From NCBI GenBank assembly GCA_014687725.1, contig GCA_014687725.1_4094.1: a stretch of 64,000 nucleotides of DNA. One strand, 5' to 3'. This document shows positions 1,901 to 58,207 of the stretch, piece after piece. The notes under the pieces are model-generated. The model ran no database searches, was not told where the DNA came from, and worked only from the letters and a program-made list of their open reading frames with translations. The number at the start of each line of letters is the position of its first letter. Position 1 is the first letter of the stretch. The DNA comes from a phage. The translations under genes and the position numbers were made by a program.

Positions 1901-2326
1901 ATGAAATACAACATTGTTAGAATGGTGAACTATGTATTAAAAAACAACGCATGGTCATTGCATGATGTACAATTAGAAGATATTGGTGAAGTTAGAGTAT
2001 TTTGCTATGATCCAGATTTGAATCAAACCACAGATTTGAGTAAATGTTTTAATATTTTTCTTGGTTATGAATTCAATAATCATTTTTATTCATTTGATGT
2101 GTATTTTGAAAAAGTTATATTCAGAAGTTATGAATGTGATAATGAAGATTATGATTATGATGACGAATCAATTGAATTGAATGTTAACGATATTGATACT
2201 GAAGAAAAATTCTTCCAGTACTGCCTCCTTAACGACATATTAGGATTAACATTTGAGGACATTAAAGCTATACTTAAAGTTCAAAAGTTGATTCCAGAAG
2301 AGGTACTAAATCCATTAAATGACTAG
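1901..2326 (+). CDS. hypothetical protein (141 aa), C-terminal FQY-NDI-GLT motif family
   Basis: C-terminal FFQYCLLNDILGLTFEDIKAIL shared with 2319, 3404, 3825 ORFs. Confidence 0.6.
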   Translation: MKYNIVRMVNYVLKNNAWSLHDVQLEDIGEVRVFCYDPDLNQTTDLSKCFNIFLGYEFNNHFYSFDVYFEKVIFRSYECDNEDYDYDDESIELNVNDIDTEEKFFQYCLLNDILGLTFEDIKAILKVQKLIPEEVLNPLND

Positions 2327-2684
2327 TCTAATAGTACGTATAATGCAAGATGTTTGTAATAACCTTTATACAGGCAATTTTGACGATCCGAACATAAAAA
2401 TATTATGTTATGATGGTTTTACAATGGTACATCCAGCCTATTCAAATAATATCTACGTAGCATATACAGGTGAAAATCTATTATATCAATTTGATATATA
2501 TAGTACAATGACAAAGATAATTTTGGATGCCTCTAAACCAGCAATCTTTATTGCTTCTCATGATTACCATTACACTGAAGAATCACTATTTCAGTACTCA
2601 ATGATTAATGACATTGGTGGGTTGACATTGGATGAGGTTAATGCTATACTAGCTGTCTCACGTTTGGTTAAAACCCACAATTAG
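2319..2684 (+). CDS. hypothetical protein (121 aa), same family
   Basis: C-terminal LFQYSMINDIGGLTLDEVNAIL. Confidence 0.6.
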   Translation: MTSLIVRIMQDVCNNLYTGNFDDPNIKILCYDGFTMVHPAYSNNIYVAYTGENLLYQFDIYSTMTKIILDASKPAIFIASHDYHYTEESLFQYSMINDIGGLTLDEVNAILAVSRLVKTHN

Positions 2685-2693
2685 GAGATTCAT

Positions 2694-2885
2694 ATGTTCT
2701 GGAATTTATTATGCTTGTTTGGTCGTACATTGGTTCTTGCTATTATTCATACACCTGGTATTCGTAATTATGTTTCTTATGAATTTAAGAAAAATTATCA
2801 CAACGGTACTGAAGTTCGTACAACTAAGATGTGCAAAGACTTCAAGGTAGATGTTCCACCATTCAAGAAGTACGAGGATGAATAA
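2694..2885 (+). CDS. hypothetical protein (63 aa)
   Basis: AGGAG RBS 7 nt upstream of ATG. Confidence 0.5.
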   Translation: MFWNLLCLFGRTLVLAIIHTPGIRNYVSYEFKKNYHNGTEVRTTKMCKDFKVDVPPFKKYEDE

Positions 2886-3169
2886 TGGAATTCATTGTTG
2901 CACCTGATGAACTTAAAACATTCACGTTCAGAGATAATAACAATTATCCTTATACAAATCATTCATTGAATTCATTACATGTTATTGCAATCATTGCATC
3001 TGAATACAGGGATAATCCATGTATTGATTTTAAAACCACTGATGGCGAATATACATGGGTGATCCCAAAAGATAAATATAGTTATCAAGGGGCAGTAGAA
3101 ATTCGTGACTCGATTCTAAAACAAATCGAAGATGGAAATACTCATCCTAAACTAAACACTCAGTACTGA
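2885..3169 (+). CDS. hypothetical protein (94 aa)
   Basis: Overlapping stop/start with previous ORF. Confidence 0.5.
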   Translation: MEFIVAPDELKTFTFRDNNNYPYTNHSLNSLHVIAIIASEYRDNPCIDFKTTDGEYTWVIPKDKYSYQGAVEIRDSILKQIEDGNTHPKLNTQY

Positions 3170-3182
3170 AATCGTTTAACCC

Positions 3183-3238
3183 GATAGCTTCTAGTCAGTA
3201 CTGATTCCTCCTTATGTATAGAAGCTATCACTTTTTTA
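3183..3238 (+). terminator. rho-independent terminator-like hairpin (11-bp stem GATAGCTTCTA/TAGAAGCTATC) plus T-run
   Basis: Inverted repeat 3183-3193/3219-3229 followed by TTTTTT; long 25-nt loop contains CAGTACTG. Confidence 0.5.
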
Positions 3239-3325
3239 CGTATAATGATATTACCCTCAAATTCATTATATTCGTTACCCTCTAACAGTATCTTTTTATT
3301 CCTCTTGGATGCTGTAATTTAGAAG

Positions 3326-3385
3326 TTGACTTTTTAACTTCTACTGTGTTATACTTAAGGCTGATTCGATGAATCGGCCTTTTTT
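3326..3385 (+). promoter_or_regulatory. promoter (TTGACT-N18-TATACT) followed by leader hairpin plus T-run
   Basis: TTGACT 3326-3331, TATACT 3350-3355, hairpin GGCTGATTC-GAT-GAATCGGCC 3359-3379, T-run 3380-3385. Confidence 0.45.
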
Positions 3386-3403
3386 CTTATATAGGTGAAT
3401 GCA

Positions 3404-3823
3404 ATGAGTTATTTGTTTACTTTAATTGATAAGTATGTTGACATTGTATACCGTCAAGTTTGTAGTGATACGTTTGAAACAAAAAATCCAATTAGAGATG
3501 GCATTTTTGATGTTGTCGTTGGATCATTTTTGAATGGATACACCGAGACATTATACAACAGTAATAATATTTTTATTTCAGTTCAATCCAGACATACATC
3601 AGACTATGCTGTTAGCATTGATATTTGGGAAAATAATATAGAAATAGATATAACGGAACATACTAACATTTGTGTTGATGATACATTTAATCAATTAACT
3701 GAAGAAATGTACTTGCAGTTGAATTTTGTACATGATCTTACAAATATCAGTTATGATACATTAAGGAAAATATGTTTTCTTAGTGGGGTGATCCGTAGTA
3801 ATATGAGTAAGGATAGGAAGTGA
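3404..3823 (+). CDS. hypothetical protein (139 aa), FQY-NDI-GLT family member
   Basis: Track ORF starts at GTG 3395; first ATG at 3404; C-terminal MYLQLNFVHDLTNISYDTLRKI. Confidence 0.55.
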   Translation: MSYLFTLIDKYVDIVYRQVCSDTFETKNPIRDGIFDVVVGSFLNGYTETLYNSNNIFISVQSRHTSDYAVSIDIWENNIEIDITEHTNICVDDTFNQLTEEMYLQLNFVHDLTNISYDTLRKICFLSGVIRSNMSKDRK

Positions 3824-8369: not shown

Positions 8370-8429
8370 TTATCCCTCCATTGGTATAATTATTATAACG
8401 TATTTATTATGCATATCCAAAAAATGAGC

Positions 8430-22412: not shown

Positions 22413-22604
22413 ATGTTGATTTATCAAGGTGATAATATTCGTGTTATGCAGCATCCCTACTTACAAATCTTTGATGTGCAGCAGTATATGGAAGGTGATG
22501 ACCCAAGAACCTATGGTCGTAAGTATGATTACTTCACTGTAAAGCAGTGTAACAATATTAACGAAGTACGACAATTAGTTCAAGAACTTCAAAACAAAGG
22601 TTGA
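22413..22604 (+). CDS. hypothetical protein (63 aa)
   Basis: AAGGA RBS before internal ATG; IYQGD motif shared with previous ORF. Confidence 0.4.
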   Translation: MLIYQGDNIRVMQHPYLQIFDVQQYMEGDDPRTYGRKYDYFTVKQCNNINEVRQLVQELQNKG

Positions 22605-25332: not shown

Positions 25333-25447
25333 TTTAACTTTGGGACAACCATTCTTATTATGATATAATGTTTTATGTCATTCGATATAAATGACAACGG
25401 AACTATAAATATTATAGTAAAATTTATCTCTTATAGGAGTTATAAAA

Positions 25448-25831
25448 ATGGTTGATAAATGGAATAAGAAAGATCCATCACATGATGTTGATATTTCTGG
25501 TCTAGACAATGCACATAAGCACAAGTATCTAGATTCACTAGGTCTTCTAAAACCAGACCAAAGTCTTGCACATGATCGTCCATCCCGTGAAAAAGCATTT
25601 AGCCTAGAATCACTAGGTCATGAGCTTAATCGTGTGTTTGAGGATCACCCAATCTATGTACGTGATATTATCGAGAAACTTAAAGTAACTCCTAAAGAGC
25701 ACTTTAAAGCAACAGTACACTCTGCATTCCGTGCATTGCATGATTCTCTCAAGAAAACTCACAATCTTCGTAAAATTCATGATGAAATCGTGAATGCAAT
25801 CGAAAGTGAAAAACATAAGTTCAAGAAGTAA
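25448..25831 (+). CDS. hypothetical protein (127 aa), shares Y-x-x-SLGLL motif with 26077 ORF
   Basis: HKYLDSLGLLKPDQ motif; AGGAG RBS. Confidence 0.55.
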   Translation: MVDKWNKKDPSHDVDISGLDNAHKHKYLDSLGLLKPDQSLAHDRPSREKAFSLESLGHELNRVFEDHPIYVRDIIEKLKVTPKEHFKATVHSAFRALHDSLKKTHNLRKIHDEIVNAIESEKHKFKK

Positions 25832-25838
25832 TAAAAAG

Positions 25839-25871
25839 GGGTTGACTAAGGTCAGCCCTTTGTTGTATCAT
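25839..25871 (+). terminator. terminator-promoter cassette variant (GGGTTGAC-TAAG-GTCAGCCC)
   Basis: Hairpin 25839-25858, T-rich tail, TATCAT 25866-25871. Confidence 0.6.
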
Positions 25872-25900
25872 AACTTCTCAATATAACTGAGGTATCATAT

Positions 25901-26014
25901 ATGCAAGGTTTGAAATTTGTAGTTGCTGCACTCATCGCCGCAGTACTGGTTGGTGGTGTATTCTATGTAGTGGATCAAAAAGTAAATCCACCTGCACAAG
26001 AACAATCTAAGTAA
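25901..26014 (+). CDS. hypothetical small membrane protein (37 aa)
   Basis: MQGLKFVVAALIAAVLVGGVFYVV hydrophobic; between two terminators; below track cutoff. Confidence 0.35.
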   Translation: MQGLKFVVAALIAAVLVGGVFYVVDQKVNPPAQEQSK

Positions 26015-26022
26015 CAAAATAA

Positions 26023-26053
26023 GGTTGACTTCGGTCAGCCTTTTCTTTATACT
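26023..26053 (+). terminator. terminator-promoter cassette (GGTTGAC-TTCG-GTCAGCC)
   Basis: Hairpin 26023-26040, T-run, TATACT 26048-26053. Confidence 0.65.
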
Positions 26054-26076
26054 ATAAATATAGACATAGAGAAAAA

Positions 26077-27630
26077 ATGAAATCTATGGAGAGAAATCAA
26101 ATGCCAAGTAATTTTACTGATAAAAATGGTGGTAACATGGCTGGTCACTCTGATAAATGGAGTGAACGCAACCGCCGTCCAAATAGTTATCAAGCAGGTC
26201 AAGGTTCACGTGGGTCACGTAATCAAGGAACTGGTCTAGCTGGTAAAGCAAACGCAGAAGCAGGTGAAGTTAAGAGTACTGAGAACATGACTGAGCTAGA
26301 AAAGCTACGTTATGTTAATTCATTGGGACTTCTTAATGCTACACAAAAACAACGCCTAGCTGATATGGAACGTGAAGAAAAAGAAAAGTCTTCTCCTGCG
26401 AAAGAAGAACCAAAACAAGAAGCACCAAAGGCGGTTAACCCTGTCAAAGAATTGTCTGATAAGTTAGGTAAGATTTTTGCTAATAAACCACAACTTATCC
26501 AAGGTATTGTGAAAGAATTGCAATCTGTACCTAAAGAAGAATTAAAAGTCAAAGCACAAGCTGTACTTGATGCAATGAGTGGAAATACCAGTACTGAACC
26601 AACTGAAGTATTCAGTACTATAATGCGTGCACTTGAAGGTAAACCACAGGGTGACGAGACTGCACAAGAGGAAGTAAGTCTTGAAAGCGTACTTAAAACA
26701 TTTGATAGTATTGGTAAAGAAGACCGTGCTAATGCTCAACAAGTTAAGAATGTACTAGCTAAGTTAGAAAACCGTCTGGAAGGTAAAGACGATAAGATTA
26801 AATTAGTATCTGATGCAGTTAACGATGCACTTAAATCTTACGTACAAGGTGAAAAGAGTCGTTTTGTAACTGCAATGGATGCTGCATTCAATACTATGAA
26901 AAAGTATGAAGCTGATCATGGTGAGAAGGTTACACGAGATGGTTATCTGATGCGTGATGATGAAGAAGGTGCAGTTGACCAGAAAGATGCTGAAACATCT
27001 CATGATGATTTACCTGATACTGTTGATATGGATGGTTACATTCATCGTCCAGAAATGGGAGAGTTTGGTTCTGACAAAGAAGGATTTGAACATGCAATGG
27101 CAGTGTACAAAGCTCTCGTGGACAATCCAGATTATGCCAACCGATTTGTAGATGAGTTTGATAGTGCATGGAACAACTACAAAGACAAAGGTTATGACTT
27201 CCCTGCTGAGGCAGCATTCTTTGAACTTGGTAAACTATTAGCTAAACATGGAATTGATGTAGGTTCTAAAGATGGTACTGATACTGATGGCATGGAAGCA
27301 GAATTGGCTAAAGATCGTGAAATGAACGACAACTCCATTCATGAACTCCAAAAGCTAATGATGTGGATATCCGATATTGGTAAAAAAGCTGGTGCTGATA
27401 ATAAGAGTATCAACAAAAACATTAGTTGGATTAAAAGTAATGTTGGTAAAAATGCTCGTAAACTACAAAAAGCATGGACTGATTTAGTAAATGGTGCTGA
27501 TGATGTTGACATTGAATCACCTGAAGCATACGAATATGCATTAACTACTCTTGATAATTCCTTTAAAGATTACGATAACGGTAACGTAACTCATTGGGAA
27601 AAGGACATCATGAGCAAATACGGTAAATGA
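26077..27630 (+). CDS. hypothetical protein (517 aa), hydrophilic, acidic/lysine-rich; paralogous N-region to 25448 ORF
   Basis: LRYVNSLGLLNATQKQ motif; long ORF flanked by terminators. Confidence 0.65.
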   Translation: MKSMERNQMPSNFTDKNGGNMAGHSDKWSERNRRPNSYQAGQGSRGSRNQGTGLAGKANAEAGEVKSTENMTELEKLRYVNSLGLLNATQKQRLADMEREEKEKSSPAKEEPKQEAPKAVNPVKELSDKLGKIFANKPQLIQGIVKELQSVPKEELKVKAQAVLDAMSGNTSTEPTEVFSTIMRALEGKPQGDETAQEEVSLESVLKTFDSIGKEDRANAQQVKNVLAKLENRLEGKDDKIKLVSDAVNDALKSYVQGEKSRFVTAMDAAFNTMKKYEADHGEKVTRDGYLMRDDEEGAVDQKDAETSHDDLPDTVDMDGYIHRPEMGEFGSDKEGFEHAMAVYKALVDNPDYANRFVDEFDSAWNNYKDKGYDFPAEAAFFELGKLLAKHGIDVGSKDGTDTDGMEAELAKDREMNDNSIHELQKLMMWISDIGKKAGADNKSINKNISWIKSNVGKNARKLQKAWTDLVNGADDVDIESPEAYEYALTTLDNSFKDYDNGNVTHWEKDIMSKYGK

Positions 27631-27640
27631 TAAAACTAAA

Positions 27641-27665
27641 GGTTGACTTCGGTCAGCCTTTTTTT
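27641..27665 (+). terminator. rho-independent terminator (GGTTGAC-TTCG-GTCAGCC plus T7)
   Basis: Hairpin 27641-27658, T-run 27659-27665. Confidence 0.75.
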
Positions 27666-28698: not shown

Positions 28699-28732
28699 AG
28701 GGTTGACTTCGGTCAGCCTTTTTTGTTATGAT
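28699..28732 (+). terminator. terminator-promoter cassette
   Basis: Hairpin 28701-28718, T-run 28719-28724, TATGAT 28727-28732. Confidence 0.65.
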
Positions 28733-28760
28733 GTTGGTATTAACTACAGAGGATAAAGTA

Positions 28761-29402
28761 ATGACTAAGCAAGAAATATTCAAAACTTTAATTGACATTT
28801 TGCGTCCATCAAAAACTCGTTGTGCGATGGAGTTTGATATTCCTTATGCTGAACGCGTAATCTTTCCACAAGTTAAAGCTGCTGGACTTACTTTGCTTGG
28901 AATGGGGATGTACTCTGTAGTAGTTGAACATAAAAACTATCCTGGACGTGCATTTAAAGTAACCACTTCACGCTGGGATGGTTTTCGTGCTTATGCAAAG
29001 TACTGCATTGAAAACGCAGGAACCAAGTTTCTTCCAGTGATCTACAGTGCAAACGAACAAGGAAACTTTGGATGGTATGAGATGGACAAGTACTATCCTA
29101 TAATTAAACAAAAAAATAATTATGATGACTTTGTTAGTACTAAAATTGGAGATTTGTATTCGTATGCACATGCTGGTCAGTACGCAACTTCAGTGAATGA
29201 TATGCGTGGAAATTCTGAAGAGATTGCTATTGCAACGGTCGCTGCTAACATCATGAAAGAGTTTCACGGGCGTTTTGTACCAGACATTCATTCAAGTAAT
29301 GTGATGATGGATAAAGATGGGAATGTATTCATTACTGATCCTCTTTCGTGTGATGTGCGTAGAGAAATACCAATTACTGAAGAAGATCCAGTTTTTTATT
29401 GA
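28761..29402 (+). CDS. protein-kinase-like fold protein (213 aa), putative
   Basis: Gly-rich LLGMGMYSVV, Lys in RAFKV, catalytic-loop-like DIHSSNVMMD, then ITDP; AGGA RBS. Confidence 0.5.
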   Translation: MTKQEIFKTLIDILRPSKTRCAMEFDIPYAERVIFPQVKAAGLTLLGMGMYSVVVEHKNYPGRAFKVTTSRWDGFRAYAKYCIENAGTKFLPVIYSANEQGNFGWYEMDKYYPIIKQKNNYDDFVSTKIGDLYSYAHAGQYATSVNDMRGNSEEIAIATVAANIMKEFHGRFVPDIHSSNVMMDKDGNVFITDPLSCDVRREIPITEEDPVFY

Positions 29403-48399: not shown

Positions 48400-49590
48400 T
48401 TACAATTGTCTAGGTGTATCCAGAACATATCTATTTGTACTAGGTCCACCATCATCATACGTTCCGGTTGAATATATATTTTTCATATCAGCAGTTAGAA
48501 AAGTACGATACGAACCGCGATATATTTTTATTTTATCATACATAGAATATGATATTTCTGCTGGCATTGGACATATAGTAAATCTACCAATAGTAACATT
48601 AGAACCAACACCTAATGTACCAGCATAACCACTCGCATTTAAACCAGTTGCATATACACCTGTACTCGTAACTAGTATACTAGATTGTGCTGCATATCCA
48701 GTATGGATTGAATAATAAGTTCCTGATGGTAATGTAGTACTATTATTCCCTAATACTGCTAGTGCTGTACTATTCGTAGTGTTATTACCCCATGCCCCAT
48801 TATTAGCGTTACCACCTACTAGGAACTGACGTGCTCCTGTACTTGGATTCTCTACTAAAGCACTGACAGCACCAATTGAACAACCAGTATATTGTAATGT
48901 TTTTGTATATGTGGTACTTGGCTTATACAAAGTATATTCATTAAATGGTGTCCATGTGGTACTAGTACTTATGCCAGATGTACTACCACCAATATATAAA
49001 TTATTTTGTGTATCAAAAAACATTACACAGTAATTTGTTGACTGTATTTGTGCAATATCTACATCTGGTGTTACCGCTTTAACAAATGAACCATCTGATA
49101 TTTGATAAGTAGTTCCTGTACCATCTGCGAATTGTCTAGCACTATTCCACCCTGTACTCCATATTGTATTATTATCCATTAAGAAAGTAAACCACGTAGT
49201 ACCTGCATACATCTGTTTAATTGAAGTACTTGAACTTTGTGTGTACAAATTTTCAATATATTGGTTATAACTTAAAAATGATGTAGTACTAGTTTCTAAA
49301 CCAATATGACTACCATATCCACAATAAAAATAATTTAAGTCCTTATCTTGAACTAACAAAGTTCCTTGTGTCATCCAGCAATCTTTGACATTTTCTCTAA
49401 TTAATGTCCACGACCTTACTGCATTATTATTTCCTCTACCAAACTTCCCAAAACTATTACTGCCTCGTGCGTATAGTTGACCATCAGTATAAAGTACAAC
49501 AACATCAGTATCAGTTGGTATTATTTTCTTAATTTGTAGTGGTACAGGCACAATATTCCCATAATTCATCATTCTTGCAAAAGGTAACAT
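48400..49590 (-). CDS. RCC1-repeat beta-propeller protein (unit 8)
   Basis: MLPFARMMNYGNI; motifs GWNSARQF, GGNANNGAWGNN. Confidence 0.7.
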   Translation of the reverse strand: MLPFARMMNYGNIVPVPLQIKKIIPTDTDVVVLYTDGQLYARGSNSFGKFGRGNNNAVRSWTLIRENVKDCWMTQGTLLVQDKDLNYFYCGYGSHIGLETSTTSFLSYNQYIENLYTQSSSTSIKQMYAGTTWFTFLMDNNTIWSTGWNSARQFADGTGTTYQISDGSFVKAVTPDVDIAQIQSTNYCVMFFDTQNNLYIGGSTSGISTSTTWTPFNEYTLYKPSTTYTKTLQYTGCSIGAVSALVENPSTGARQFLVGGNANNGAWGNNTTNSTALAVLGNNSTTLPSGTYYSIHTGYAAQSSILVTSTGVYATGLNASGYAGTLGVGSNVTIGRFTICPMPAEISYSMYDKIKIYRGSYRTFLTADMKNIYSTGTYDDGGPSTNRYVLDTPRQL

Positions 49591-49655
49591 AATTCCCTCC
49601 TTTATTCATTATACTATATTTAATACAAATAAGAATGCCAGTATCAAGTACTGGC
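49591..49655 (-). promoter_or_regulatory. array intergenic module (hairpin overlaps stop of unit 9)
   Basis: GCCAGTA...TACTGGC around 49637-49655. Confidence 0.55.
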
Positions 49656-50831
49656 ATTGATTGTTGGAAGTGGGAACTCTTTCATGACAGATGAACTACT
49701 TGCTGAAATATTATCAGGGGATTTCCCCGCGTAGTATAATTTATTATTAATGTACATATACAACGTTGCATCGTTCCCAGCTACAAGTGATTCACTTTTC
49801 TTAAAATTAACACCATCAGGTAAAATTGCTTCAACAAATGAACCAGAATTAATTGTACTGTTATTTGCCAATTGACCATTGTTATTATAACCAGTACTAT
49901 AAATTTTACCAGAGCTATAATATACCAGGCCACGGGATGAGATGTTTTCAATTCGAATGAATTCACTATCATCTGGAACGGTTTTCGATAACGTTGGCGT
50001 TAATTTATAACCCCCTGCTGTAGTATTATTACCCAACTGACCATCAGCTTGATAGCCCATTGTATACATAGGACATGATTCTGGTGTACCTTTAGTTATA
50101 ATACCAATATAACTCGCACTACAAAAAACGTCTATAGCTTCGGTAACAGGTGTGCCCTTATATTGAACCCAAGGAAATATATATGTGTTTTGAACTCCAT
50201 TTCCCAACGTTCCATGAGATGTTGTCCCAGTACGCCATATTGTATTATCTAGTTTAATAATCCAGTTAGAGGGTGTGATGGATGAACAGAATTTTTTAAC
50301 ATTATCGACTAAAAATGTAAATTTATTAAAATATGATGCAGTGTTTAAACCAAACTTTGAATTTTTATTATCACCTAACAAATATAAACTATTATCAGTA
50401 CCTAAAATCAAAGCATAATCAAGACCTACATATATCTCTTTGATTTTTGAAATACCAAATTGTGTAAAATAACTCGTACATTCAGTGAATGTTGTTACAG
50501 TATTTGTTGTATTATTACCTAGCCATTTATCTAAACCACTATAAAAGAATCTATCATCATTTGTTCGTATTAGACAAAACCCATTCCCTGTACTGCACCA
50601 AAAATCTTTAACATTGCTATATATTTTTGTCCATTCAGTAACCTGTGTAGTATTCCCTAACCCAAAAATTCCACCATTCTGAAGACCCATAGCCCACACT
50701 GATCCATTTACATCCAGCAGCATTGTGCATGTAAATGAATAACCAACTGCTGGGGTGACTAATTTAGTAAAATTGGGAACATATGGAATGACTTTATTCC
50801 CGTACTTAACCATTCTTGTAAAAGGTAACAT
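49644..50831 (-). CDS. RCC1-repeat beta-propeller protein (unit 9, 395 aa)
   Basis: MLPFTRMVKYGNK at internal ATG 50831; motifs GYQADGQLGNN, GYNNNGQLANN. Confidence 0.75.
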   Translation of the reverse strand: MLPFTRMVKYGNKVIPYVPNFTKLVTPAVGYSFTCTMLLDVNGSVWAMGLQNGGIFGLGNTTQVTEWTKIYSNVKDFWCSTGNGFCLIRTNDDRFFYSGLDKWLGNNTTNTVTTFTECTSYFTQFGISKIKEIYVGLDYALILGTDNSLYLLGDNKNSKFGLNTASYFNKFTFLVDNVKKFCSSITPSNWIIKLDNTIWRTGTTSHGTLGNGVQNTYIFPWVQYKGTPVTEAIDVFCSASYIGIITKGTPESCPMYTMGYQADGQLGNNTTAGGYKLTPTLSKTVPDDSEFIRIENISSRGLVYYSSGKIYSTGYNNNGQLANNSTINSGSFVEAILPDGVNFKKSESLVAGNDATLYMYINNKLYYAGKSPDNISASSSSVMKEFPLPTINAST

Positions 50832-50901
50832 AATTCCTCCTTTATTCATTATACTATATTTAATCAAAAAATAAAAGCCAGTATCAAGTACTGGCTTTAA
50901 T
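50832..50901 (-). promoter_or_regulatory. array intergenic module
   Basis: Conserved unit with GCCAGTATCAAGTACTGGC hairpin. Confidence 0.6.
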
Positions 50902-52050
50902 TCATTGTATAAATGACATATCAACTTCGGTATATCTTGTAGTGTACTGCCCAGAACTTCCACCCATTACTAGATTGGAAAAACCAGTATAAAATAACTT
51001 CCCTTCATCTGTGAGAATCAAACTACCGATGTTATTCAGTACTAAACTGTAAGAACTATTAAAATTTTCATAAGACTTGGTATAATAGAACTGATTTGTA
51101 AGATTACCAACACCCAATTGCCCACCAGTGTTAACCCCAGATGCAAATATTGTAGTCCCAAATCTGAGAATATGTGAAGCCATATTACCAACACAACAGT
51201 ATATATTCTGTACATCCGAATTCAATAAAGTTGGTGTTGTGTATTGCTTAAGTGTTGTGCCTGTGCCGAATTCATTACCATATGATACTCCATATTGTGT
51301 ACCACAAGCGTACAATTTATTATCATCTTTAATAAAAAATGTACTCTGATAACTTACATCGACATCTATAACATTAGTCTGTATTCTAACAACACCAGTA
51401 CTAGCAGTTTGATTGCCTGTCCCTAACTGATAGTAAGTGTTAATACCACAACCCCATAATGTATTATCTTCTTTTAGGTATATGTTACCAACAGCTTTTT
51501 TTACCGATGATATGGCTTCAATCTTAACAAAGGCGTTAAATGAATTTGTATTTGTGCCATTACCAAAAGATGATCTGGTTGATGTGCTGTTTGTTCCGCA
51601 GCAATATAAAGTACCATCAGTTGTTATCAAATTCACTTTAAGATCACTGTAACTACTCATGTATTTTATATCAGAAACATTAATACCACTGGATGTTATC
51701 CATGAAGTACAATCTGTCCACGTGTTATAATATGCACCTGAACCAGAAAACGCACTCGGACTTCCAGTTATAAACACTTTTCCAGTACCGTCTTCTTCAT
51801 ATAATTGACAACCACTACTGTTATTTTCCAAAAGGACTCTTTTAACATTAGTCGCACTAAGAATAAATTTACTCGACGCTACACCAGTTCCAGTACCCTG
51901 ACTGACTGCCGCTGATGCATACAAATTTTTCGTGTATGTATCATGAAAATACATAGCACTACCGCCGGAATATATTTTAAAACGTGTACTAGGATCAGGC
52001 GGGTTAGGTGCAATATTTCCGTACTTAATCATTCTTCCAAAAGGTAACAT
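50902..52050 (-). CDS. RCC1-repeat beta-propeller protein (unit 10)
   Basis: MLPFGRMIKYGNI; motifs GVNTGGQLGVGN, GINTYYQLGTGN. Confidence 0.8.
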   Translation of the reverse strand: MLPFGRMIKYGNIAPNPPDPSTRFKIYSGGSAMYFHDTYTKNLYASAAVSQGTGTGVASSKFILSATNVKRVLLENNSSGCQLYEEDGTGKVFITGSPSAFSGSGAYYNTWTDCTSWITSSGINVSDIKYMSSYSDLKVNLITTDGTLYCCGTNSTSTRSSFGNGTNTNSFNAFVKIEAISSVKKAVGNIYLKEDNTLWGCGINTYYQLGTGNQTASTGVVRIQTNVIDVDVSYQSTFFIKDDNKLYACGTQYGVSYGNEFGTGTTLKQYTTPTLLNSDVQNIYCCVGNMASHILRFGTTIFASGVNTGGQLGVGNLTNQFYYTKSYENFNSSYSLVLNNIGSLILTDEGKLFYTGFSNLVMGGSSGQYTTRYTEVDMSFIQ

Positions 52051-52121
52051 ATTTCCCTCCTTTATTCATTATAGTATATTTAATACAAATAAGAATGCCA
52101 GTATCAAGCACTGGCATTATG
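52051..52121 (-). promoter_or_regulatory. array intergenic module
   Basis: Conserved unit. Confidence 0.6.
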
Positions 52122-53231
52122 TTATTTTGGTAAATCAATTTTAGTAAAGACTGCAACATCCTCGATTGCACCTGGAATGGCGTAATACGATCCAGTACTA
52201 TACACATCTCCATTTTTGGTTAATATCGATGTCAAACCATCACTAAAAAGAACATCTCTAATCTCACTAACTTCAACGGGTAATTGTAAATTGGTAGCAC
52301 TATATATAGCACCAGTTTGAGAATTGTTTAATCCCAAACCACGGTTCGCCCCAACACCCTTCTGATATGTACTAGTAATTACCATTTGTGTAGCAGTATT
52401 TAATGCAGGTGAATTCGTCATAAACAACGGAGAACTATTAGGCAAAGTACTTACAGGAACTGCACGGAATGTAGTCGTACCTGAACTAAGAAAGTTTGGA
52501 GTTTGACCACATACGAAATATGATGTACCATTATAGTAATTTAATGCATTACCACCAATGGCTGCATCGATTACACCAGAACTACGCAATCCCCAAGTGT
52601 TAATTTGTGTTTGGTTCCCCGTACCATGCTGCCCACTACTATTCCATCCAGAACTATATAGCTTATTATCTAATGTAAGATACATACTATCATTCGCATT
52701 GGTCATTACTTTACGAACGTTCGTAGCACATTGAGTTAATGTATAAATTGATGATGAACCAATACCCAAAGAACCACGATATCCATTATCTCCTGCACCA
52801 TAGAGTACTGAATTAGTGCTAAGTACAAATATTAAACCATTTGTACATACAATATTAGCAATTTCACTTACTGGTATAGCATTGGTAAACCAATTAGTCC
52901 TTTCAACTAATACAGTACTGTAAGAAGTAGTCGTAGAAGATGAGAACCAGTACGTTTGACCTGATGTCCATATAGTATTATCATTTTTAATAATAACAAG
53001 TGTACGATCACCCACGAAAAAATTAGAAACATCTGCACTTACTAATATCCATGAAGATACCGTGTTGGTATTACCATTTCCAGATTCACCACCTTGATTT
53101 CTACCTATGTAATATAAATCATGTGAATCAGTCAATAAGAATTGACCTTGTGTAGAAGCACCAACTTTAATTATATTTTTAGGACCAGGTACAATATTTC
53201 CGTACTTAACCATTCTTCCAAAAGGTAACAT
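52122..53231 (-). CDS. RCC1-repeat beta-propeller protein (unit 11, 369 aa)
   Basis: MLPFGRMVKYGNI at internal ATG 53231; motif GWNSSGQHGTGN. Confidence 0.75.
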   Translation of the reverse strand: MLPFGRMVKYGNIVPGPKNIIKVGASTQGQFLLTDSHDLYYIGRNQGGESGNGNTNTVSSWILVSADVSNFFVGDRTLVIIKNDNTIWTSGQTYWFSSSTTTSYSTVLVERTNWFTNAIPVSEIANIVCTNGLIFVLSTNSVLYGAGDNGYRGSLGIGSSSIYTLTQCATNVRKVMTNANDSMYLTLDNKLYSSGWNSSGQHGTGNQTQINTWGLRSSGVIDAAIGGNALNYYNGTSYFVCGQTPNFLSSGTTTFRAVPVSTLPNSSPLFMTNSPALNTATQMVITSTYQKGVGANRGLGLNNSQTGAIYSATNLQLPVEVSEIRDVLFSDGLTSILTKNGDVYSTGSYYAIPGAIEDVAVFTKIDLPK

Positions 53232-53304
53232 AAATCCCTCCTTATTCATTATACTATATTTAATACAAAAAAGAAAAGCCAGCATCAAGTACTGGCATAT
53301 CAAA
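53232..53304 (-). promoter_or_regulatory. array intergenic module
   Basis: Conserved unit with GCCAGCATCAAGTACTGGC hairpin. Confidence 0.6.
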
Positions 53305-54453
53305 TCACTGCAAAAATGACATATCGACTTCGGTATAATTAAGAACGTTCTGTCCAGCAATACCTCCCATTACTACAATTGAAGCCCCACAATAATATAA
53401 CTTCGAAGTGTCAGTAAGTATAAGTGAACCAGATGGGGTGCGTACCAAATTACACGAAGTATTAAACGAAGTATATGAAGGGGTATAAGAGTACTGATTA
53501 ATATTATTACCAACACCTAATTGACCAGACGAGTTGCTTCCAGATGCATAAAGTACTTCATCACCTTTAACTATATGTGACGCCATGTTACCAACACAAG
53601 TATATAAACTATAAACTCCTGAACTCAATAATGTTGGAGTTTTGTATTGTATATCTGTAGATGAAGAAGTACCACCTGTGCCAAATTCGTTCCCGTATTG
53701 TGCACCGAACTGTTTACCACATGCGTACAAATTATTATCTGATTTAATAAAAAATGTACTCTGATAACTTACATCAAAATCTATAACATCCGAAGCAATC
53801 ATCGTCACCCCAGTAATAGAAGTTTGATTACCTGTACCTAACTGATAGTAATAGTTAAAACCACAACCCCATAAAGTATTATCTTCTTTTAGGTATATGT
53901 TACCAACTGCCTTTTTAACCGAAGTTATAGTATCTACCCTTTTGAATGTGTTAAAAGAATTAATGTTTGTACCATCACCAAATGATGATAGGTTAGAGTT
54001 ATTGTTAGCTCCACAACAATACAATGTACCATCGTTTGTTATCAAATTTACCTTCATATCATTAAAACTACTCATGTATTTTATATCAGAAACATTAATA
54101 CCACCTGATGTTATCCACGTAGTACATTCCGTCCACAAAGTTTTTCTATCAGTTACACCAGTGAATGCCTTCGTGTTACCAGTGATAAAAACTTTTCCAG
54201 TACCTTTCTCTTCATACAATTGACAATCACTACTGTTATTTTCCAATAGAACTCGTTTAACATTCTCCGCACTAAGAATAAATTTACTCGACGAAACACC
54301 TGTTCCAGTACCCCAATTCGTCGCAGAAGATGCATACAACTTATCAGTATAAGTATCATGAAGATACATGGAATCACTGGAATATATTTTAAAACGTCCA
54401 TCATCACCAGGGGCAATATTCCCGTACTTAATCATTCTAACAAAAGGTAACAT
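53305..54453 (-). CDS. RCC1-repeat beta-propeller protein (unit 12, 382 aa)
   Basis: MLPFVRMIKYGNI; motifs GSNSSGQLGVGN, GFNYYYQLGTGN; close paralog of unit 10. Confidence 0.8.
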   Translation of the reverse strand: MLPFVRMIKYGNIAPGDDGRFKIYSSDSMYLHDTYTDKLYASSATNWGTGTGVSSSKFILSAENVKRVLLENNSSDCQLYEEKGTGKVFITGNTKAFTGVTDRKTLWTECTTWITSGGINVSDIKYMSSFNDMKVNLITNDGTLYCCGANNNSNLSSFGDGTNINSFNTFKRVDTITSVKKAVGNIYLKEDNTLWGCGFNYYYQLGTGNQTSITGVTMIASDVIDFDVSYQSTFFIKSDNNLYACGKQFGAQYGNEFGTGGTSSSTDIQYKTPTLLSSGVYSLYTCVGNMASHIVKGDEVLYASGSNSSGQLGVGNNINQYSYTPSYTSFNTSCNLVRTPSGSLILTDTSKLYYCGASIVVMGGIAGQNVLNYTEVDMSFLQ

Positions 54454-54501
54454 ATTTCCCTCCTTATTCATTATATCATATTTACCCCATAAAGAAAACC
54501 C
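54454..54501 (-). promoter_or_regulatory. upstream region of array unit 12 (TATAAT and SD on minus strand)
   Basis: Minus strand GATATAATGAATAAGGAGGGAAAT then ATG. Confidence 0.5.
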
Positions 54502-54530
54502 TTGACATCCTTTCAGTACTGGTGTACTAT
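54502..54530 (+). promoter_or_regulatory. divergent promoter TTGACA-N17-TACTAT for plus-strand small-gene array
   Basis: TTGACA 54502-54507; AAGGAG RBS before ATG 54556. Confidence 0.5.
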
Positions 54531-54555
54531 AGAAGGAATATAAGGAGAACTACAC

Positions 54556-54783
54556 ATGACAAATACTCTTAAGCACTACCTCAATACTCTAAATGAACTA
54601 GAGTACGGGGAATTTCTCGCGGATAGTTCGTGGCTAATTGAGCTAAAAAATTATAATAGTCCAGGATGCACCCTTATGATGAACAATGCAATTGATACCC
54701 TCATTGTGAGTATTTTACACAGCAACATCTGCGGGGATAGCAATAAACAATTATCAAAAATCTTAGTACTGCTATCTATATGA
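54556..54783 (+). CDS. small paralog array protein (divergent member), 75 aa
   Basis: First gene of tandem array; hydrophobic C-terminus ILVLLSI. Confidence 0.5.
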   Translation: MTNTLKHYLNTLNELEYGEFLADSSWLIELKNYNSPGCTLMMNNAIDTLIVSILHSNICGDSNKQLSKILVLLSI

Positions 54784-54983
54784 ACATTGAACAGTACTAC
54801 ATCGATGCACTACCAACAAAAGGTCTACGAGAAAGCCTACTGTATACACAAAATACTTTTATACACTACAAACGTTGTCCTAAACTCCTGAACTCGTACA
54901 GGAGTAATATCATAAGAAATGCTTTACAAGGGGCAGAAAGTATGCAATACTATTATATCCTTGCCCTTTTAATCGAGTACTAA
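54780..54983 (+). CDS. small paralog array protein, 67 aa
   Basis: MNIEQYYIDAL ... YYYILALLIEY. Confidence 0.55.
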   Translation: MNIEQYYIDALPTKGLRESLLYTQNTFIHYKRCPKLLNSYRSNIIRNALQGAESMQYYYILALLIEY

Positions 54984-54984
54984 T

Positions 54985-55194
54985 ATGAATACTGAACATA
55001 AAGAATTCTACACCAAATACCTTAGCAACGAAGAACAATTGTTTCTAAGGAGTGTATCACCTGTAAGTACCAATACTCACTTCGGTAGAGATTGCTTTAA
55101 TAATTGTATACGTAGTACTCTAGAAGCAATCGAATGCAATAACAAAAATATTATGTACTCAGGTTTAATAGGACTAATCTACTTCTATGAATAA
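54985..55194 (+). CDS. small paralog array protein, 69 aa
   Basis: MNTEHKEFYTKYL ... FNNCIRSTL ... LIGLIYFYE; close paralog of 57998. Confidence 0.6.
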   Translation: MNTEHKEFYTKYLSNEEQLFLRSVSPVSTNTHFGRDCFNNCIRSTLEAIECNNKNIMYSGLIGLIYFYE

Positions 55195-55381
55195 TCATAA
55201 AGATTTCTATGGTAGTAAACTACACAAGCAAGACCAGCTATCATTCTCTTTAGCACCACCTATGAGAAAGGATAATCTATATTACAATTACGATTTCAGG
55301 ATGGCGACACGTTATGCAATAGAACATCAGTTCCCTGAAACTAAGTACCGCTCTATCCTGAACCTCATCTTTAAGTTCTAA
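55187..55381 (+). CDS. small paralog array protein, 64 aa
   Basis: MNNHKDFY ... ILNLIFKF. Confidence 0.55.
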   Translation: MNNHKDFYGSKLHKQDQLSFSLAPPMRKDNLYYNYDFRMATRYAIEHQFPETKYRSILNLIFKF

Positions 55382-55433
55382 AAGGTGCAACAGGAACCGA
55401 GTACTTTAATATAGTAAGGCTAATTACATTATA

Positions 55434-55619
55434 ATGAATCATATAAGCTACTACTACCAACAACTATCAGACAGAGACAAGTACAGTCACAACTCCCATG
55501 TGTGGTACTACAAACGCGGCAGTATAAGAGACAAACAACATTACTTCTGTATTTCTATTAAAGAAGCACTGACAACTAAGTACACGTACCGAGCAGTACT
55601 GAAACTTATTGAAATGTAA
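55434..55619 (+). CDS. small paralog array protein, 61 aa
   Basis: KYTYRAVLKLIEM C-terminus. Confidence 0.55.
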   Translation: MNHISYYYQQLSDRDKYSHNSHVWYYKRGSIRDKQHYFCISIKEALTTKYTYRAVLKLIEM

Positions 55620-55627
55620 GGAAGAAA

Positions 55628-55810
55628 ATGAACATAGAATTCTATTTAACTAAACTACAACACGCCGAAAGATTCAACTTCAATAAGTTCAATATTTTCT
55701 ACAATTGCGGGAACAAAAAAGATAAACACACCTTCCTATATGTCGTCACAAGAGATGCACAAAACGAAAAGTACACATACAGAGAAGTAATGAAACTAAT
55801 CGCTATTTAA
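55628..55810 (+). CDS. small paralog array protein, 60 aa
   Basis: KYTYREVMKLIAI C-terminus. Confidence 0.55.
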   Translation: MNIEFYLTKLQHAERFNFNKFNIFYNCGNKKDKHTFLYVVTRDAQNEKYTYREVMKLIAI

Positions 55811-55818
55811 GGAATACT

Positions 55819-55998
55819 ATGCAACAATTCTATAGAGAACGTATAACCATAAAAGACCGTTTCATGTACGACACCTTCGTGAAGTACTACAAACTAGGAA
55901 CAAAAAGTACTAAAAATATTAATCTCAATAGCTGCATTTATGCTGTACTAACACAAGATAATCCCTACAGGGAAATCCTCGCCCTGGCATCTATATAA
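55819..55998 (+). CDS. small paralog array protein, 59 aa (below track cutoff)
   Basis: MQQFYRERI ... NSCIYAVL ... ILALASI; fills gap in array. Confidence 0.45.
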   Translation: MQQFYRERITIKDRFMYDTFVKYYKLGTKSTKNINLNSCIYAVLTQDNPYREILALASI

Positions 55999-56008
55999 AG
56001 GAAACCAA

Positions 56009-56680
56009 ATGAAACTTAATGCACACAGCAAACAATACCTTAAGCACTTTAAGTACCTCAATAGTATTCAGGCAGAATCAGTTACATCTGCATATACGTA
56101 TCACCCGAATGTACTAAAGAAACGAAATAAAAAGGAAAAATCCAGTACAAATGGAGTTAACGTATCAAAGAACCTTGAATTGTACATGAAGAAAAATAAT
56201 ATAGCTGTTCATTATATGAATATCTATAATACTGATTTAAAAGTATTGAGTACTAATACGAGCACAAAGGTACTAAAGAACGCATCCTTCATCATCAATA
56301 TGCAGTTGGATAATACCCCGTGCACTTTAATGCTATACTTCGGGAATACATACTTCTTCGGGAATTGTAACACCTCCCACGATGTCAATACAGCACAATT
56401 CCAAATGGGTGGCATATACAATATGGGTTCAAAAAAAGTACACGAGAATATGCACTTCTGGCAAGCACAACGTACAGAAGAAACTAAATCAATTGTAGAT
56501 TTCCTCAAAGAACTAGAACACAAAGAACTACAGGAAGAAGAACTATTCATGTACAGTACTGTAATCGATAATCCAGTACTCTATAAAAACGCGTACAATC
56601 TGACAAAACATGTACAGGAAATTATCAGTACTAATAAGAAAATGCATCACCTCATTACGTATATTACAAACTATGTATAA
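56009..56680 (+). CDS. hypothetical protein (223 aa) embedded in small-gene array
   Basis: Larger ORF interrupting the array; next gene start overlaps its stop. Confidence 0.55.
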   Translation: MKLNAHSKQYLKHFKYLNSIQAESVTSAYTYHPNVLKKRNKKEKSSTNGVNVSKNLELYMKKNNIAVHYMNIYNTDLKVLSTNTSTKVLKNASFIINMQLDNTPCTLMLYFGNTYFFGNCNTSHDVNTAQFQMGGIYNMGSKKVHENMHFWQAQRTEETKSIVDFLKELEHKELQEEELFMYSTVIDNPVLYKNAYNLTKHVQEIISTNKKMHHLITYITNYV

Positions 56681-56855
56681 AGAATACTACCAAGAACATC
56701 TCCCAATGCATCTCCAACACCTTGTACCCAAAGAACCAATAGGAATAAAAGATCACGCAAAAATAATGTTCCAACAATGTACTAAGTACACGCTCATATA
56801 CGATGATAATCCATATATGCTGTACTACGTAGTAATGCTAACATTCAGGTACTAA
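56673..56855 (+). CDS. small paralog array protein, 60 aa
   Basis: MYKEYYQEHLPMHLQHLVP ... VVMLTFRY; paralog of 57045. Confidence 0.55.
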   Translation: MYKEYYQEHLPMHLQHLVPKEPIGIKDHAKIMFQQCTKYTLIYDDNPYMLYYVVMLTFRY

Positions 56856-56856
56856 T

Positions 56857-57036
56857 ATGCACAAACATAAAGAATTCTACCTCTCGTACCTTAATTCCGA
56901 TATAGTAACATCCAATACCTTCAGTACTAAAATTATCTATAATGAATTAATAAAAGAATGTATTAAAGGTGCTATTAACCCTAAAGATACGTATGACTTG
57001 TACTATGCAGTACTAACCCTTGTTTTCACGAAATAA
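56857..57036 (+). CDS. small paralog array protein, 59 aa (below track cutoff)
   Basis: MHKHKEFYLSYL ... AVLTLVFTK; TAATATG stop-start junction. Confidence 0.45.
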   Translation: MHKHKEFYLSYLNSDIVTSNTFSTKIIYNELIKECIKGAINPKDTYDLYYAVLTLVFTK

Positions 57037-57044
57037 CACATAAT

Positions 57045-57236
57045 ATGAATAACCACAAAGAATACTACATAGAGAAACTCCCAATGTATCTCCAACACCT
57101 TGTACCAAACGTTGCATTGGGTATAGAAAAAAACTACGAAAAAGACTACTTCATTCAGTGCACTAAATCCTCGATATATATTGACGACTATAATCGAGTA
57201 CTGTATCACATCCTTTTACTAATATATAGGTACTAA
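57045..57236 (+). CDS. small paralog array protein, 63 aa
   Basis: MNNHKEYYIEKLPMYLQHLVP ... LLLIYRY. Confidence 0.6.
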   Translation: MNNHKEYYIEKLPMYLQHLVPNVALGIEKNYEKDYFIQCTKSSIYIDDYNRVLYHILLLIYRY

Positions 57237-57237
57237 T

Positions 57238-57420
57238 ATGCACAAAGAATACTACACACAATTTCTCCCCAGCATTTTTGAACACTACGCCAGATATAAA
57301 GTCCCTATGGATAACGATTTGGCAGTACTGGGATTCAATAACTGCATAGAACGAAGTATAGAAAATAGTAGTAGTTATGACCAGCTATATAACACTATCC
57401 TACTTATATTCAGGTACTAA
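57238..57420 (+). CDS. small paralog array protein, 60 aa
   Basis: MHKEYYTQFL ... FNNCIERSI ... LLIFRY. Confidence 0.6.
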   Translation: MHKEYYTQFLPSIFEHYARYKVPMDNDLAVLGFNNCIERSIENSSSYDQLYNTILLIFRY

Positions 57421-57421
57421 C

Positions 57422-57610
57422 ATGCATAAAGAATACTACACAAAATATTTCCCAATGTACCTCAGAACTAATCTATTAGATAAACCTCGCGGTATCAATG
57501 CACAAAATGATAAAGTGTATTTTACTATGTGCACTAAAGCATGTATACTAGATTTTGACAGCTATCATCGAGTACTGTATCATACCCTGTACCTAGCTTT
57601 CGTATTCTAA
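57422..57610 (+). CDS. small paralog array protein, 62 aa
   Basis: MHKEYYTKYF ... LYLAFVF; internal ATG of track ORF 57377-57610. Confidence 0.55.
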   Translation: MHKEYYTKYFPMYLRTNLLDKPRGINAQNDKVYFTMCTKACILDFDSYHRVLYHTLYLAFVF

Positions 57611-57619
57611 GAGAACAAT

Positions 57620-57805
57620 ATGCATAAAGAATTCTACTTAAGCCATCTGGATCTAAACTCCCAAATGCTTATACCACTAATCCCAATAGATATCAAGGAT
57701 AAGAAAAATACCGAACAATTCATTTACCATACACAGTGTGCGATCACCCCAAATTACATTCCATATGAATTGTACTACATTATCGCCCTAATATATAGGT
57801 ACTAA
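57620..57805 (+). CDS. small paralog array protein, 61 aa
   Basis: MHKEFYLSHL ... IIALIYRY. Confidence 0.6.
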   Translation: MHKEFYLSHLDLNSQMLIPLIPIDIKDKKNTEQFIYHTQCAITPNYIPYELYYIIALIYRY

Positions 57806-57806
57806 T

Positions 57807-57992
57807 ATGCATAGAGAATACTACACACAATTTGTTAAAGGGAACTACAAACATGCCGTACCCAGAACCCCTTTAAATTCTCATGACCCAAGTACTATAT
57901 TCTTGTTCCATGACGCAATACGTACAGTACTCAATACTAAAGATGAAGATGTGCAGTACGTATTCTTACTATTACTTATATACAGACACTAA
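57807..57992 (+). CDS. small paralog array protein, 61 aa
   Basis: MHREYYTQFV ... LLLLIYRH. Confidence 0.6.
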   Translation: MHREYYTQFVKGNYKHAVPRTPLNSHDPSTIFLFHDAIRTVLNTKDEDVQYVFLLLLIYRH

Positions 57993-57997
57993 CTAAT

Positions 57998-58207
57998 ATG
58001 AATAAAGAACATAAAGAATTCTACTCCAAATACATAAGCCCCTCAGAACAAATGTTTCTAAGGACTACACCACCTTTAAGTACTAATACATATTTCGGCA
58101 GAGTATGCTACAATAATTGTATTCAAATGACTTTAAACGCAAACGAAGATGGTAACAGTACTAACCTGTACTCAGGTATCATAGGTATACTATTCCTGTA
58201 TGAATAA
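57998..58207 (+). CDS. small paralog array protein, 69 aa
   Basis: MNKEHKEFYSKYI ... YNNCIQMTL ... GILFLYE. Confidence 0.6.
   Translation: MNKEHKEFYSKYISPSEQMFLRTTPPLSTNTYFGRVCYNNCIQMTLNANEDGNSTNLYSGIIGILFLYE

Follow-up and report, generated by a model that had tools for sequence, protein, structure and literature searches.

Sequence comparison links two virion proteins of an Asteriusvirus-type jumbo phage as paralogs sharing an N-terminal module and lying in predicted late-gene cassettes

The internal proteins IPI, IPII, IPIII and Alt of phage T4 carry an N-terminal capsid-targeting sequence of about 10 amino acids (aa), which is cleaved off by gp21 at L/I-x-E. Work on this targeting sequence of the internal proteins is said to go back to Mullaney and Black and to Repoila et al. 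in 1994, and inner-body and head paralog families were reportedly described in phiKZ and 201phi2-1 by Thomas et al. in 2012 (as cited in PMC7247149). Among the phiKZ inner-body proteins are gp89, 90, 93, 95, 97 and 162. A bubblegram-visible inner body is also present in phAPEC6 (PMC7247149), and T4-like phages carry composite promoter-terminator cassettes named PeSL (PMC2839356, PMC4122927). Here we describe a locus that can be set beside these systems, at positions 25448-27630 of a 64,000-nucleotide (nt) stretch of phage DNA (NCBI GenBank assembly GCA_014687725.1, contig GCA_014687725.1_4094.1; the whole stretch is called the window hereafter), in which two genes encode virion proteins that share an N-terminal module and are paralogs. 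Nucleotide comparison of the 2.5-kb region revealed 99.9% identity to Escherichia phage vB_Eco_slurp01 and 90-99% identity to the other Asteriusvirus jumbo phages SHEFM2K, G17, Sharanji, PBECO4, 121Q and phAPEC6, and the source of the window is assigned on sequence to a RaK2/121Q-type Asteriusvirus jumbo phage.

A sequence-only reading of the window had proposed that a 127-aa and a 517-aa open reading frame (ORF) form a paralog pair with shared motifs. Both ORFs were present, at 25448-25831 (127 aa) and 26077-27630 (517 aa); these genes, the ORF between them and the promoters, hairpins and protein segments mapped around them all lie on the plus strand. BLASTP with compositional adjustment aligned the small with the large paralog over 116 columns at 25% identity (E = 3e-8), with both motif pairs picked out in the earlier reading in register. 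The Smith-Waterman score was 83 versus 36 ± 5.4 for shuffles in which either sequence was randomized, and 0/4000 shuffles reached 83. The small protein matched the phrog_16530 hidden Markov model (HMM) at 6.2e-56 and the large protein matched phrog_20398 at 1.9e-218, while residues 9-188 of the large protein also matched phrog_16530, the PHROG of the small protein, at 7.6e-38. Comparison of the two family alignments by hhalign placed the full small protein onto large residues 9-191 (99.5% probability, E = 2.9e-22). The profile comparisons gave a far stronger signal than the pairwise ones. The pairwise alignment was significant, the possibility of chance similarity was not borne out, and the proposed pair is fully supported by the BLASTP, shuffling and profile tests. 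These comparisons demonstrate paralogy of two PHROG families that are filed separately, phrog_16530 and phrog_20398 standing in the databases as two unrelated hypothetical families. The description of both proteins as hydrophilic and lysine/acid-rich also held, with a grand average of hydropathy of -0.9 for each and an abundance of Lys, Asp and Glu.

The small paralog (25448..25831; 14.8 kDa, pI 9.05, 12 His) is the orthologue of 121Q gp199 and phAPEC6 gp037c, and the large paralog (26077-27630) is the orthologue of 121Q gp201, phAPEC6 gp035c and RaK2 ORF275. The small-paralog HMM was closer to CBB_38 (9e-24) than to the adjacent large paralog (1e-9). A search with three HMMs, which took in every six-frame ORF of the window and of the entire 348-kb 121Q genome, recovered no third copy of the shared module.

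That the two genes encode virion proteins, a possibility raised in the sequence-only reading, is supported by published proteomics on orthologues and homologues, which was positive for both paralogs in phAPEC6 and for the relatives in CBB, GAP32 and RaK2. Electrospray ionization tandem mass spectrometry (ESI-MS/MS) of phAPEC6 virions yielded 8 unique peptides of gp035c (28.8% coverage) and 5 peptides of gp037c (48% coverage) (PMC7247149 Table 1), and 9 peptides of CBB_38 (56.6% coverage) were found in CBB virions (PMC5259590 Table 4). CBB_038, GAP32_032 and RaK2 ORF275 were positive by mass spectrometry (MS) in their respective virions, in a table that gives presence or absence per protein (PMC5259590 supplementary Table S1). 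The annotation of 121Q marks both genes as structural. With this evidence, which comes from orthologues and homologues in other phages and shows virion association, not position in the particle, we consider it established that both genes encode virion proteins of a RaK2/121Q-type jumbo phage.

A different identity is hinted at in the phAPEC6 record, where a note cites a weak SbcC/SMC hit (E = 0.039). On that account the large protein would be an SMC/SbcC-like chromosome segregation protein and its similarity to the small ORF compositional only, which is extremely improbable given that the similarity remains significant under compositional adjustment, in shuffling and in profile-profile tests and that the protein is a virion component by MS. 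The SMC/SbcC identity was itself examined and rejected, with no Pfam hit at E ≤ 1, no NCBIfam hit, no PDB relative and no Walker A/B ATPase heads. In the phAPEC6 stretch examined, gp035c (2302-3555) bears the label "chromosome segregation protein", which is probably spurious and may spread to other records.

From family alignments, an exhaustive homologue search and a unified HMM, we defined a four-part module, which in the large paralog takes up ORF residues 9-190 (26101..26646) as delimited by hhalign, family conservation and the unit HMM. The first part is an N-region that is basic (pI about 10) and disordered and has Gly, Ser, Arg, Asn and Gln in abundance; it is deleted in the small copy. 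The second part has the consensus DTSKMxxxEKLKYFxSLGLL and stands at a near-constant position; it occurs in 40 of the 50 family representatives, so the "SLGLL" noticed in the earlier reading is a family hallmark. This hallmark reads YLDSLGLL in the small paralog (residues 27-34; 25526..25549) and YVNSLGLL in the large one (26311-26334). The third part is a variable linker in which Pro, Glu and Lys abound, and the fourth is a 65-residue helical unit, present once in each paralog and twice in tandem in some metagenomic relatives. The unified unit HMM located this unit as a single copy at residues 55-119 of the small paralog (25610..25804, E = 1e-28) and at 26443-26637 in the large one (E = 4e-30). 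A divergent 171-aa member of the small family, P0013, retains the complete N-terminus of the large protein, "MPSNFTDKNG...GSRGSRNQGTG...KAN". Because P0013 still has this full large-type N-terminus, we read the small paralog of Asteriusvirus as the module with a deletion, namely the module minus about 30 residues of the Gly/Ser/Arg-rich segment.

Repeats resembling the helical unit were seen in P0098 (850 aa) and P0101 (580 aa), two Ala/Arg/Glu-rich proteins, possibly of bacterial origin, whose sequences differ from those of the family members in phages. Both contain tandem repeats, 5-7 in number, and over its first ~28 residues (ENPFAEISDQLTRLYAQKD...) each repeat matches the beginning of the phage helical unit (NPVKELSDKLGKIFANKP...) at ~1e-6, a likeness that may reflect either homology or convergence.

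Beyond the module, the large paralog continues into a C-terminal extension (26647..27627) that is mosaic, acidic and predicted to be all-helical, its domains being present in some relatives and missing from others. Relatives of the large paralog are between 413 and 606 aa long and differ by block indels, the N-terminal module being conserved throughout, and pieces of the extension recur elsewhere as stand-alone small proteins (P0089, P0104). The possibility that the large C-terminal part consists of diverged copies of the helical unit was rejected by the unit HMM test. Both paralogs are predicted to be all-helical and are Cys-free; the AF2 model of the small paralog was all-helical with a mean pLDDT of 67.7, and that of the large paralog showed helical modules on disordered linkers (pTM 0.28). 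Searches of Pfam (E ≤ 1), NCBIfam and PDB sequences returned nothing significant, and Foldseek against BFVD returned the family itself alone.

The open frame of the large paralog begins at 26077 (MKSMERNQ...), and its ninth residue is encoded by ATG 26101 (MPSNF...). All distant homologues of the large paralog begin with MPG or MPS, and the 121Q annotation places the start of gp201 at the MPS-type position. A GGAG Shine-Dalgarno sequence stands 7 nt upstream of ATG 26101, while ATG 26077 is merely 16 nt from the late-promoter octamer described below. Because the homologue starts, the Shine-Dalgarno sequence and the promoter spacing agree, the large gene most likely starts at ATG 26101, which gives a predicted protein of 509 aa (26101..27630; 56.6 kDa, pI 4.99). 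The longer form stands in several database entries, P0014 (517 aa) among them.

The family is small and confined to one clade, with 40 hits among 1.84 billion representative proteins, and the module was found in 71 phage records. All named records belong to phages that have genomes of ~310-384 kb and infect enterobacteria or Xanthomonas, covering nine host genera (Escherichia, Klebsiella, Salmonella, Erwinia, Yersinia, Pectobacterium, Cronobacter, Serratia and Xanthomonas), and the RaK2-like phages among them include RaK2, K64-1, CBB, GAP32 and 121Q. In the exhaustive search, family proteins were 146-598 aa long. The module stands alone in CBB gp038 (172 aa) and in 7t3_0190 of Salmonella phage 7t3 (177 aa), and short match spans suggest the same for GAP32, Serratia BF and Yersinia fHe-Yen9-04, while in RaK2 and K64-1 it forms the N-terminus of a ~565-aa protein. 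Gene order around the paralogs is identical in 121Q, G17 and phAPEC6; in CBB, RaK2 and 7t3, no small paralog is adjacent to the module gene. The Salmonella phages SE_PL, 7t3 and Munch have a small paralog (74% identical to that of the window) together with a stand-alone 177-aa full module, and the homologue searches made gave no sign of the long fused form in these three phages. Their combination differs from that of Asteriusvirus, which suggests repeated fusion or loss of the C-terminal extension.

Each paralog is preceded by TATAAATA, a T4-type late-promoter octamer, at 25404..25411, 36 nt upstream of the small paralog's ATG 25448, and at 26053..26060, 40 nt upstream of ATG 26101. These are the sole two copies in the 64-kb window, versus 13.8 ± 3.3 expected. 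The 7-mer ATAAATA occurs 5 times in the window versus 44 ± 7 expected, and 3 of the 5 copies precede genes of MS-verified virion proteins; one-mismatch variants of TATAAATA were too noisy for use. ATAAATA is similarly depleted, about 5-fold, in the 121Q genome (55 versus ~294 expected), where the genes with a copy 17-50 nt upstream include those for the major capsid protein, scaffold, prohead protease, sheath, tube, baseplate and fibres, and the full octamer of the paralogs also precedes the capsid and scaffold genes. Of the ATAAATA copies that remain, more than half sit 17-50 nt upstream of virion or morphogenesis genes. Upstream of the homologues, the late motif is kept in G17, 121Q, RaK2 and 7t3, and with one mismatch in CBB. 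The 121Q annotation includes a gp55-like late sigma factor (gene 591), and for CBB and GAP32 this motif has been reported ahead of structural genes, together with a gp55-like sigma factor (PMC5259590). Both paralogs thus combine the two marks of a T4-type late gene, a late octamer tens of nt upstream and a gp55-like sigma gene, and from these promoter signatures we predict their late expression. Weighing against strict lateness, sigma-70-like promoters also lie upstream of both genes, and either gene may be read from these.

A further ATAAATA copy, at 8401-8407 on the minus strand, stands 31 nt upstream of a 384-aa ORF that starts at 8369 (minus strand) and is a lone minus-strand gene in a plus-strand block; it is an orthologue of the 121Q gp155 Ig-domain virion protein. 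The position of this motif marks the ORF as another candidate late-gene island.

The sequence-only reading had also described each paralog as isolated by terminators. One half of this stood, a stable hairpin with a U-tract lying downstream of each paralog: that of the small paralog, of the GGGGTTGACTAAGGTCAGCCCC type, at 25836..25861 (-17 kcal/mol, z = -4.8), and that of the large paralog at 27638..27661 (-13.3 kcal/mol, z = -4.2), both PeSL-like. The other half has to be revised, in that the hairpin at 26021..26042 (-12.4 kcal/mol, z = -4.8) belongs to an intervening 37-aa ORF, which it terminates, and that the small paralog has no hairpin immediately upstream. This ORF (25901..26014) is the orthologue of 121Q gp200 (phrog_35037), is unrelated to the two paralogs and has its own hairpin cassette without a late motif; sitting between the paralogs, it is conserved and encodes a single hydrophobic helix of membrane type. 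A hairpin homologous to that of the large paralog is found 3' of RaK2 ORF275 and of 7t3_0190.

These hairpins belong to a 9-copy repeat family, GGTTGACTTCGGTCAGCC, whose copies all lie on the plus strand between 22.6 and 35.9 kb of the window, at 22599, 25840, 26023, 27641, 28701, 32902, 33485, 34184 and 35905. The stem holds a TTGACT -35 box, and most copies are followed by a T-run and a TATAAT-like -10 box, with 17-18 nt between the boxes where the promoter scan called them and free energies of -12 to -17 kcal/mol. The hairpin at 25836..25861 contains the TTGACT box and is followed by TATCAT. In the next cassette, TTGACT (26025-26030), a 17-nt spacer and TATACT make up a sigma-70-like promoter overlapping the large paralog's late octamer. 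By the definition of PMC4122927, a PeSL is a stem-loop with a U-tract and a sigma-70 pair at ~17 nt, repeated in a region of variable genes, and all of these traits were found here; we therefore classify the hairpins, on their predicted structure, as PeSL-type composite terminator/early-promoter cassettes. With a late promoter before and a terminator/early promoter after each paralog, "isolation by terminators" is better described as late-gene islands in an early block. Each paralog would then be a self-contained cassette, read from the late promoter TATAAATA with the phage gp55-like sigma factor and closed by a terminator hairpin, and each hairpin would restart early sigma-70 transcription for the next gene.

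The surroundings of both paralogs are early-type, host-takeover-type genes. A T7 gp0.7-like protein kinase, the orthologue of 121Q gp205, lies at 28728-29402, about 1.1 kb downstream of the large paralog, and its presence marks the neighbourhood as one of this type. The earlier suggestion of "an internal virion protein or injected effector", which stays speculative, fits a late promoter, a position among early genes, a basic disordered N-region and a mosaic C-terminus.

Considering where such proteins could reside in the particle, we favour the head interior as the most likely location of the paralogs, with a probability of roughly 0.4. This preference is based on four observations. First, a T4-type prohead system is present, with gp21-, gp22- and gp23-like genes and the scaffold assigned in 121Q to gene 602. 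Second, the phAPEC6 inner body has no assigned proteins. Third, the proteins are helical, hydrophilic and free of Cys, with an N-region that combines disorder and basic charge. Fourth, the arrangement recalls T4 internal proteins in having a shared N-terminal element, polymorphic cargo and late genes outside the head module. The shared module would be the part that brings the protein into the particle, and loading into the head interior would proceed through the T4-type prohead core with its gp21-like protease and gp22-like scaffold. The module would be sufficient alone for virion incorporation, because it occurs as a stand-alone virion protein in CBB, GAP32 and Salmonella phages and stand-alone forms are MS-positive. 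Through it, the long paralog would bring along into the virion its acidic helical extension, which changes rapidly. Once inside the head, the proteins could form part of an inner body as in phAPEC6 or exit with the DNA.

Several points weigh against a place in the head interior. The MS and sequence data point neither to the head nor to the tail, neck or fibres, and the whole large protein is strongly acidic, its net charge of -23 being awkward amid packed DNA. Neither N-terminus (MPSNFTDKNG..., MVDKWNKKDP...) resembles the T4 capsid-targeting sequence. The first [LIV]-x-E occurs only at residue 63 of the small and 115 of the large protein, away from the N-termini, and no T4-type protease cleavage site was identified. 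Fold searches gave generic helical bundles at best. According to the phAPEC6 authors, none of the inner-body proteins of phiKZ resembles a protein of phAPEC6 (PMC7247149), and the phiKp24 cryo-electron microscopy, Sharanji, PA5oct and JP4 papers contain nothing on the position of the present proteins.

In the same virions, other proteins have been put forward for the inner body. Window positions ~41000-58000 (minus strand) hold a long array of tandem RCC1-like paralogs, which the 121Q annotation labels "DNA condensation"; no ATAAATA motif was found with them in the window. Several RCC1-like paralogs were detected by MS in phAPEC6 virions and were proposed by the authors as inner-body candidates (PMC7247149).

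As MS gives virion association without location, the paralogs could also be placed outside the head, as anchors or accessories of the hair-like fibres that phAPEC6-, CBB- and 121Q-type phages bear on capsid and tail or as neck or tail accessories, with the variable C-terminus pointing outward. A conserved N-terminus joined to a variable C-terminus is the usual pattern of fibre and receptor-binding proteins, and phAPEC6 and CBB bear unusual hair-like fibres whose proteins are mostly unassigned. We nevertheless think such an external or peripheral placement unlikely: the predicted all-helical proteins with long disordered linkers have none of the beta-rich, trimeric or coiled-coil features of fibres, their genes are distant from the tail and fibre modules among early-type genes, and the module is conserved across all the records and host genera given above, including phages of Xanthomonas, Yersinia and Klebsiella.

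The helical, charged and hydrophilic composition, which resembles that of scaffolding proteins, would also agree with minor scaffold-like proteins of the prohead core that build or size the large T4-type head and are partly trapped in it, with no role after ejection. The full TATAAATA promoter is the same as that of the scaffold and major capsid protein genes, and a gp21/gp22/gp23-type head module is present. An assembly role of this kind is distinctly unlikely, however, since the genes do not adjoin the head genes, 121Q gene 602 has already been assigned as the major scaffold, a mosaic, indel-rich C-terminus would be unusual under the constraints of assembly geometry, and a peptide coverage of 29-57% in mature virions argues against extensive degradation.

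Returning to the head interior, a more specific version would make DTSKM...KYFxSLGLL plus the 65-residue unit a hitherto unrecognised capsid-interior loading module of the RaK2-like T4-type prohead, with stand-alone and small forms located in a phAPEC6-type inner body and the long form delivering a shuffling helical effector with the DNA; as a joint proposal this is doubtful. In the same doubtful proposal, the loading module would act like the T4 capsid-targeting sequence or an encapsulin cargo-loading peptide, while being unrelated to them in sequence and kept in the mature protein.

The locus itself is an ordinary and partly known feature, and its importance would grow if the module proved to be a head-loading device or an inner-body component. 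It would offer a concrete candidate for the inner body of 121Q/phAPEC6-type phages, to which no proteins are assigned, and a portable module of ~120-180 aa, putatively sufficient for virion incorporation in several genera, could provide a handle on protein loading in 350-kb phages. The comparison further links two separate PHROGs and corrects a misleading "chromosome segregation protein" label and a probable start-codon error, and it documents a late-promoter motif and PeSL-type cassettes for this clade, in which ATAAATA could serve to predict late and virion genes.

Compared with T4, the present phage likewise has a T4-type prohead with a gp21-like protease and a gp22-like scaffold. As with the T4 internal proteins, a conserved N-terminal element is common to otherwise different virion proteins, and the genes lie away from the head module, are late by prediction and have cargo that is polymorphic between related phages. 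The difference is that no sequence similarity connects the two, and that the element here is ~120-180 aa long and persists as a stand-alone virion protein. phiKZ and 201phi2-1 offer a parallel in jumbo-phage virion proteins occurring as paralogs, although two copies only are found here. The hairpins agree with the PeSL of T4-like phages in joining a stem-loop terminator to a near-consensus sigma-70 promoter (TTGACT, 17 nt, TATAAT) and in being repeated across small variable genes, bracketing single genes; they differ in having the -35 box inside the stem, in occurring in a RaK2-like jumbo phage and in bracketing genes that carry an extra late promoter. The closest counterparts are direct orthologues or homologues, namely phrog_16530 and phrog_20398 ("virion structural protein"), 121Q gp199/gp201, phAPEC6 gp037c/gp035c, RaK2 ORF275, CBB_038 and GAP32_032, so that the proteins themselves are already known, being catalogued in PHROGs and verified by MS. 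The published phAPEC6 and CBB accounts of these families describe neither their paralogy nor the module architecture or the arrangement as late cassettes. What is new here is the paralogy, the module architecture with its hallmark motif, the series of stand-alone and fused forms, the late-promoter and PeSL cassettes, and two annotation corrections.

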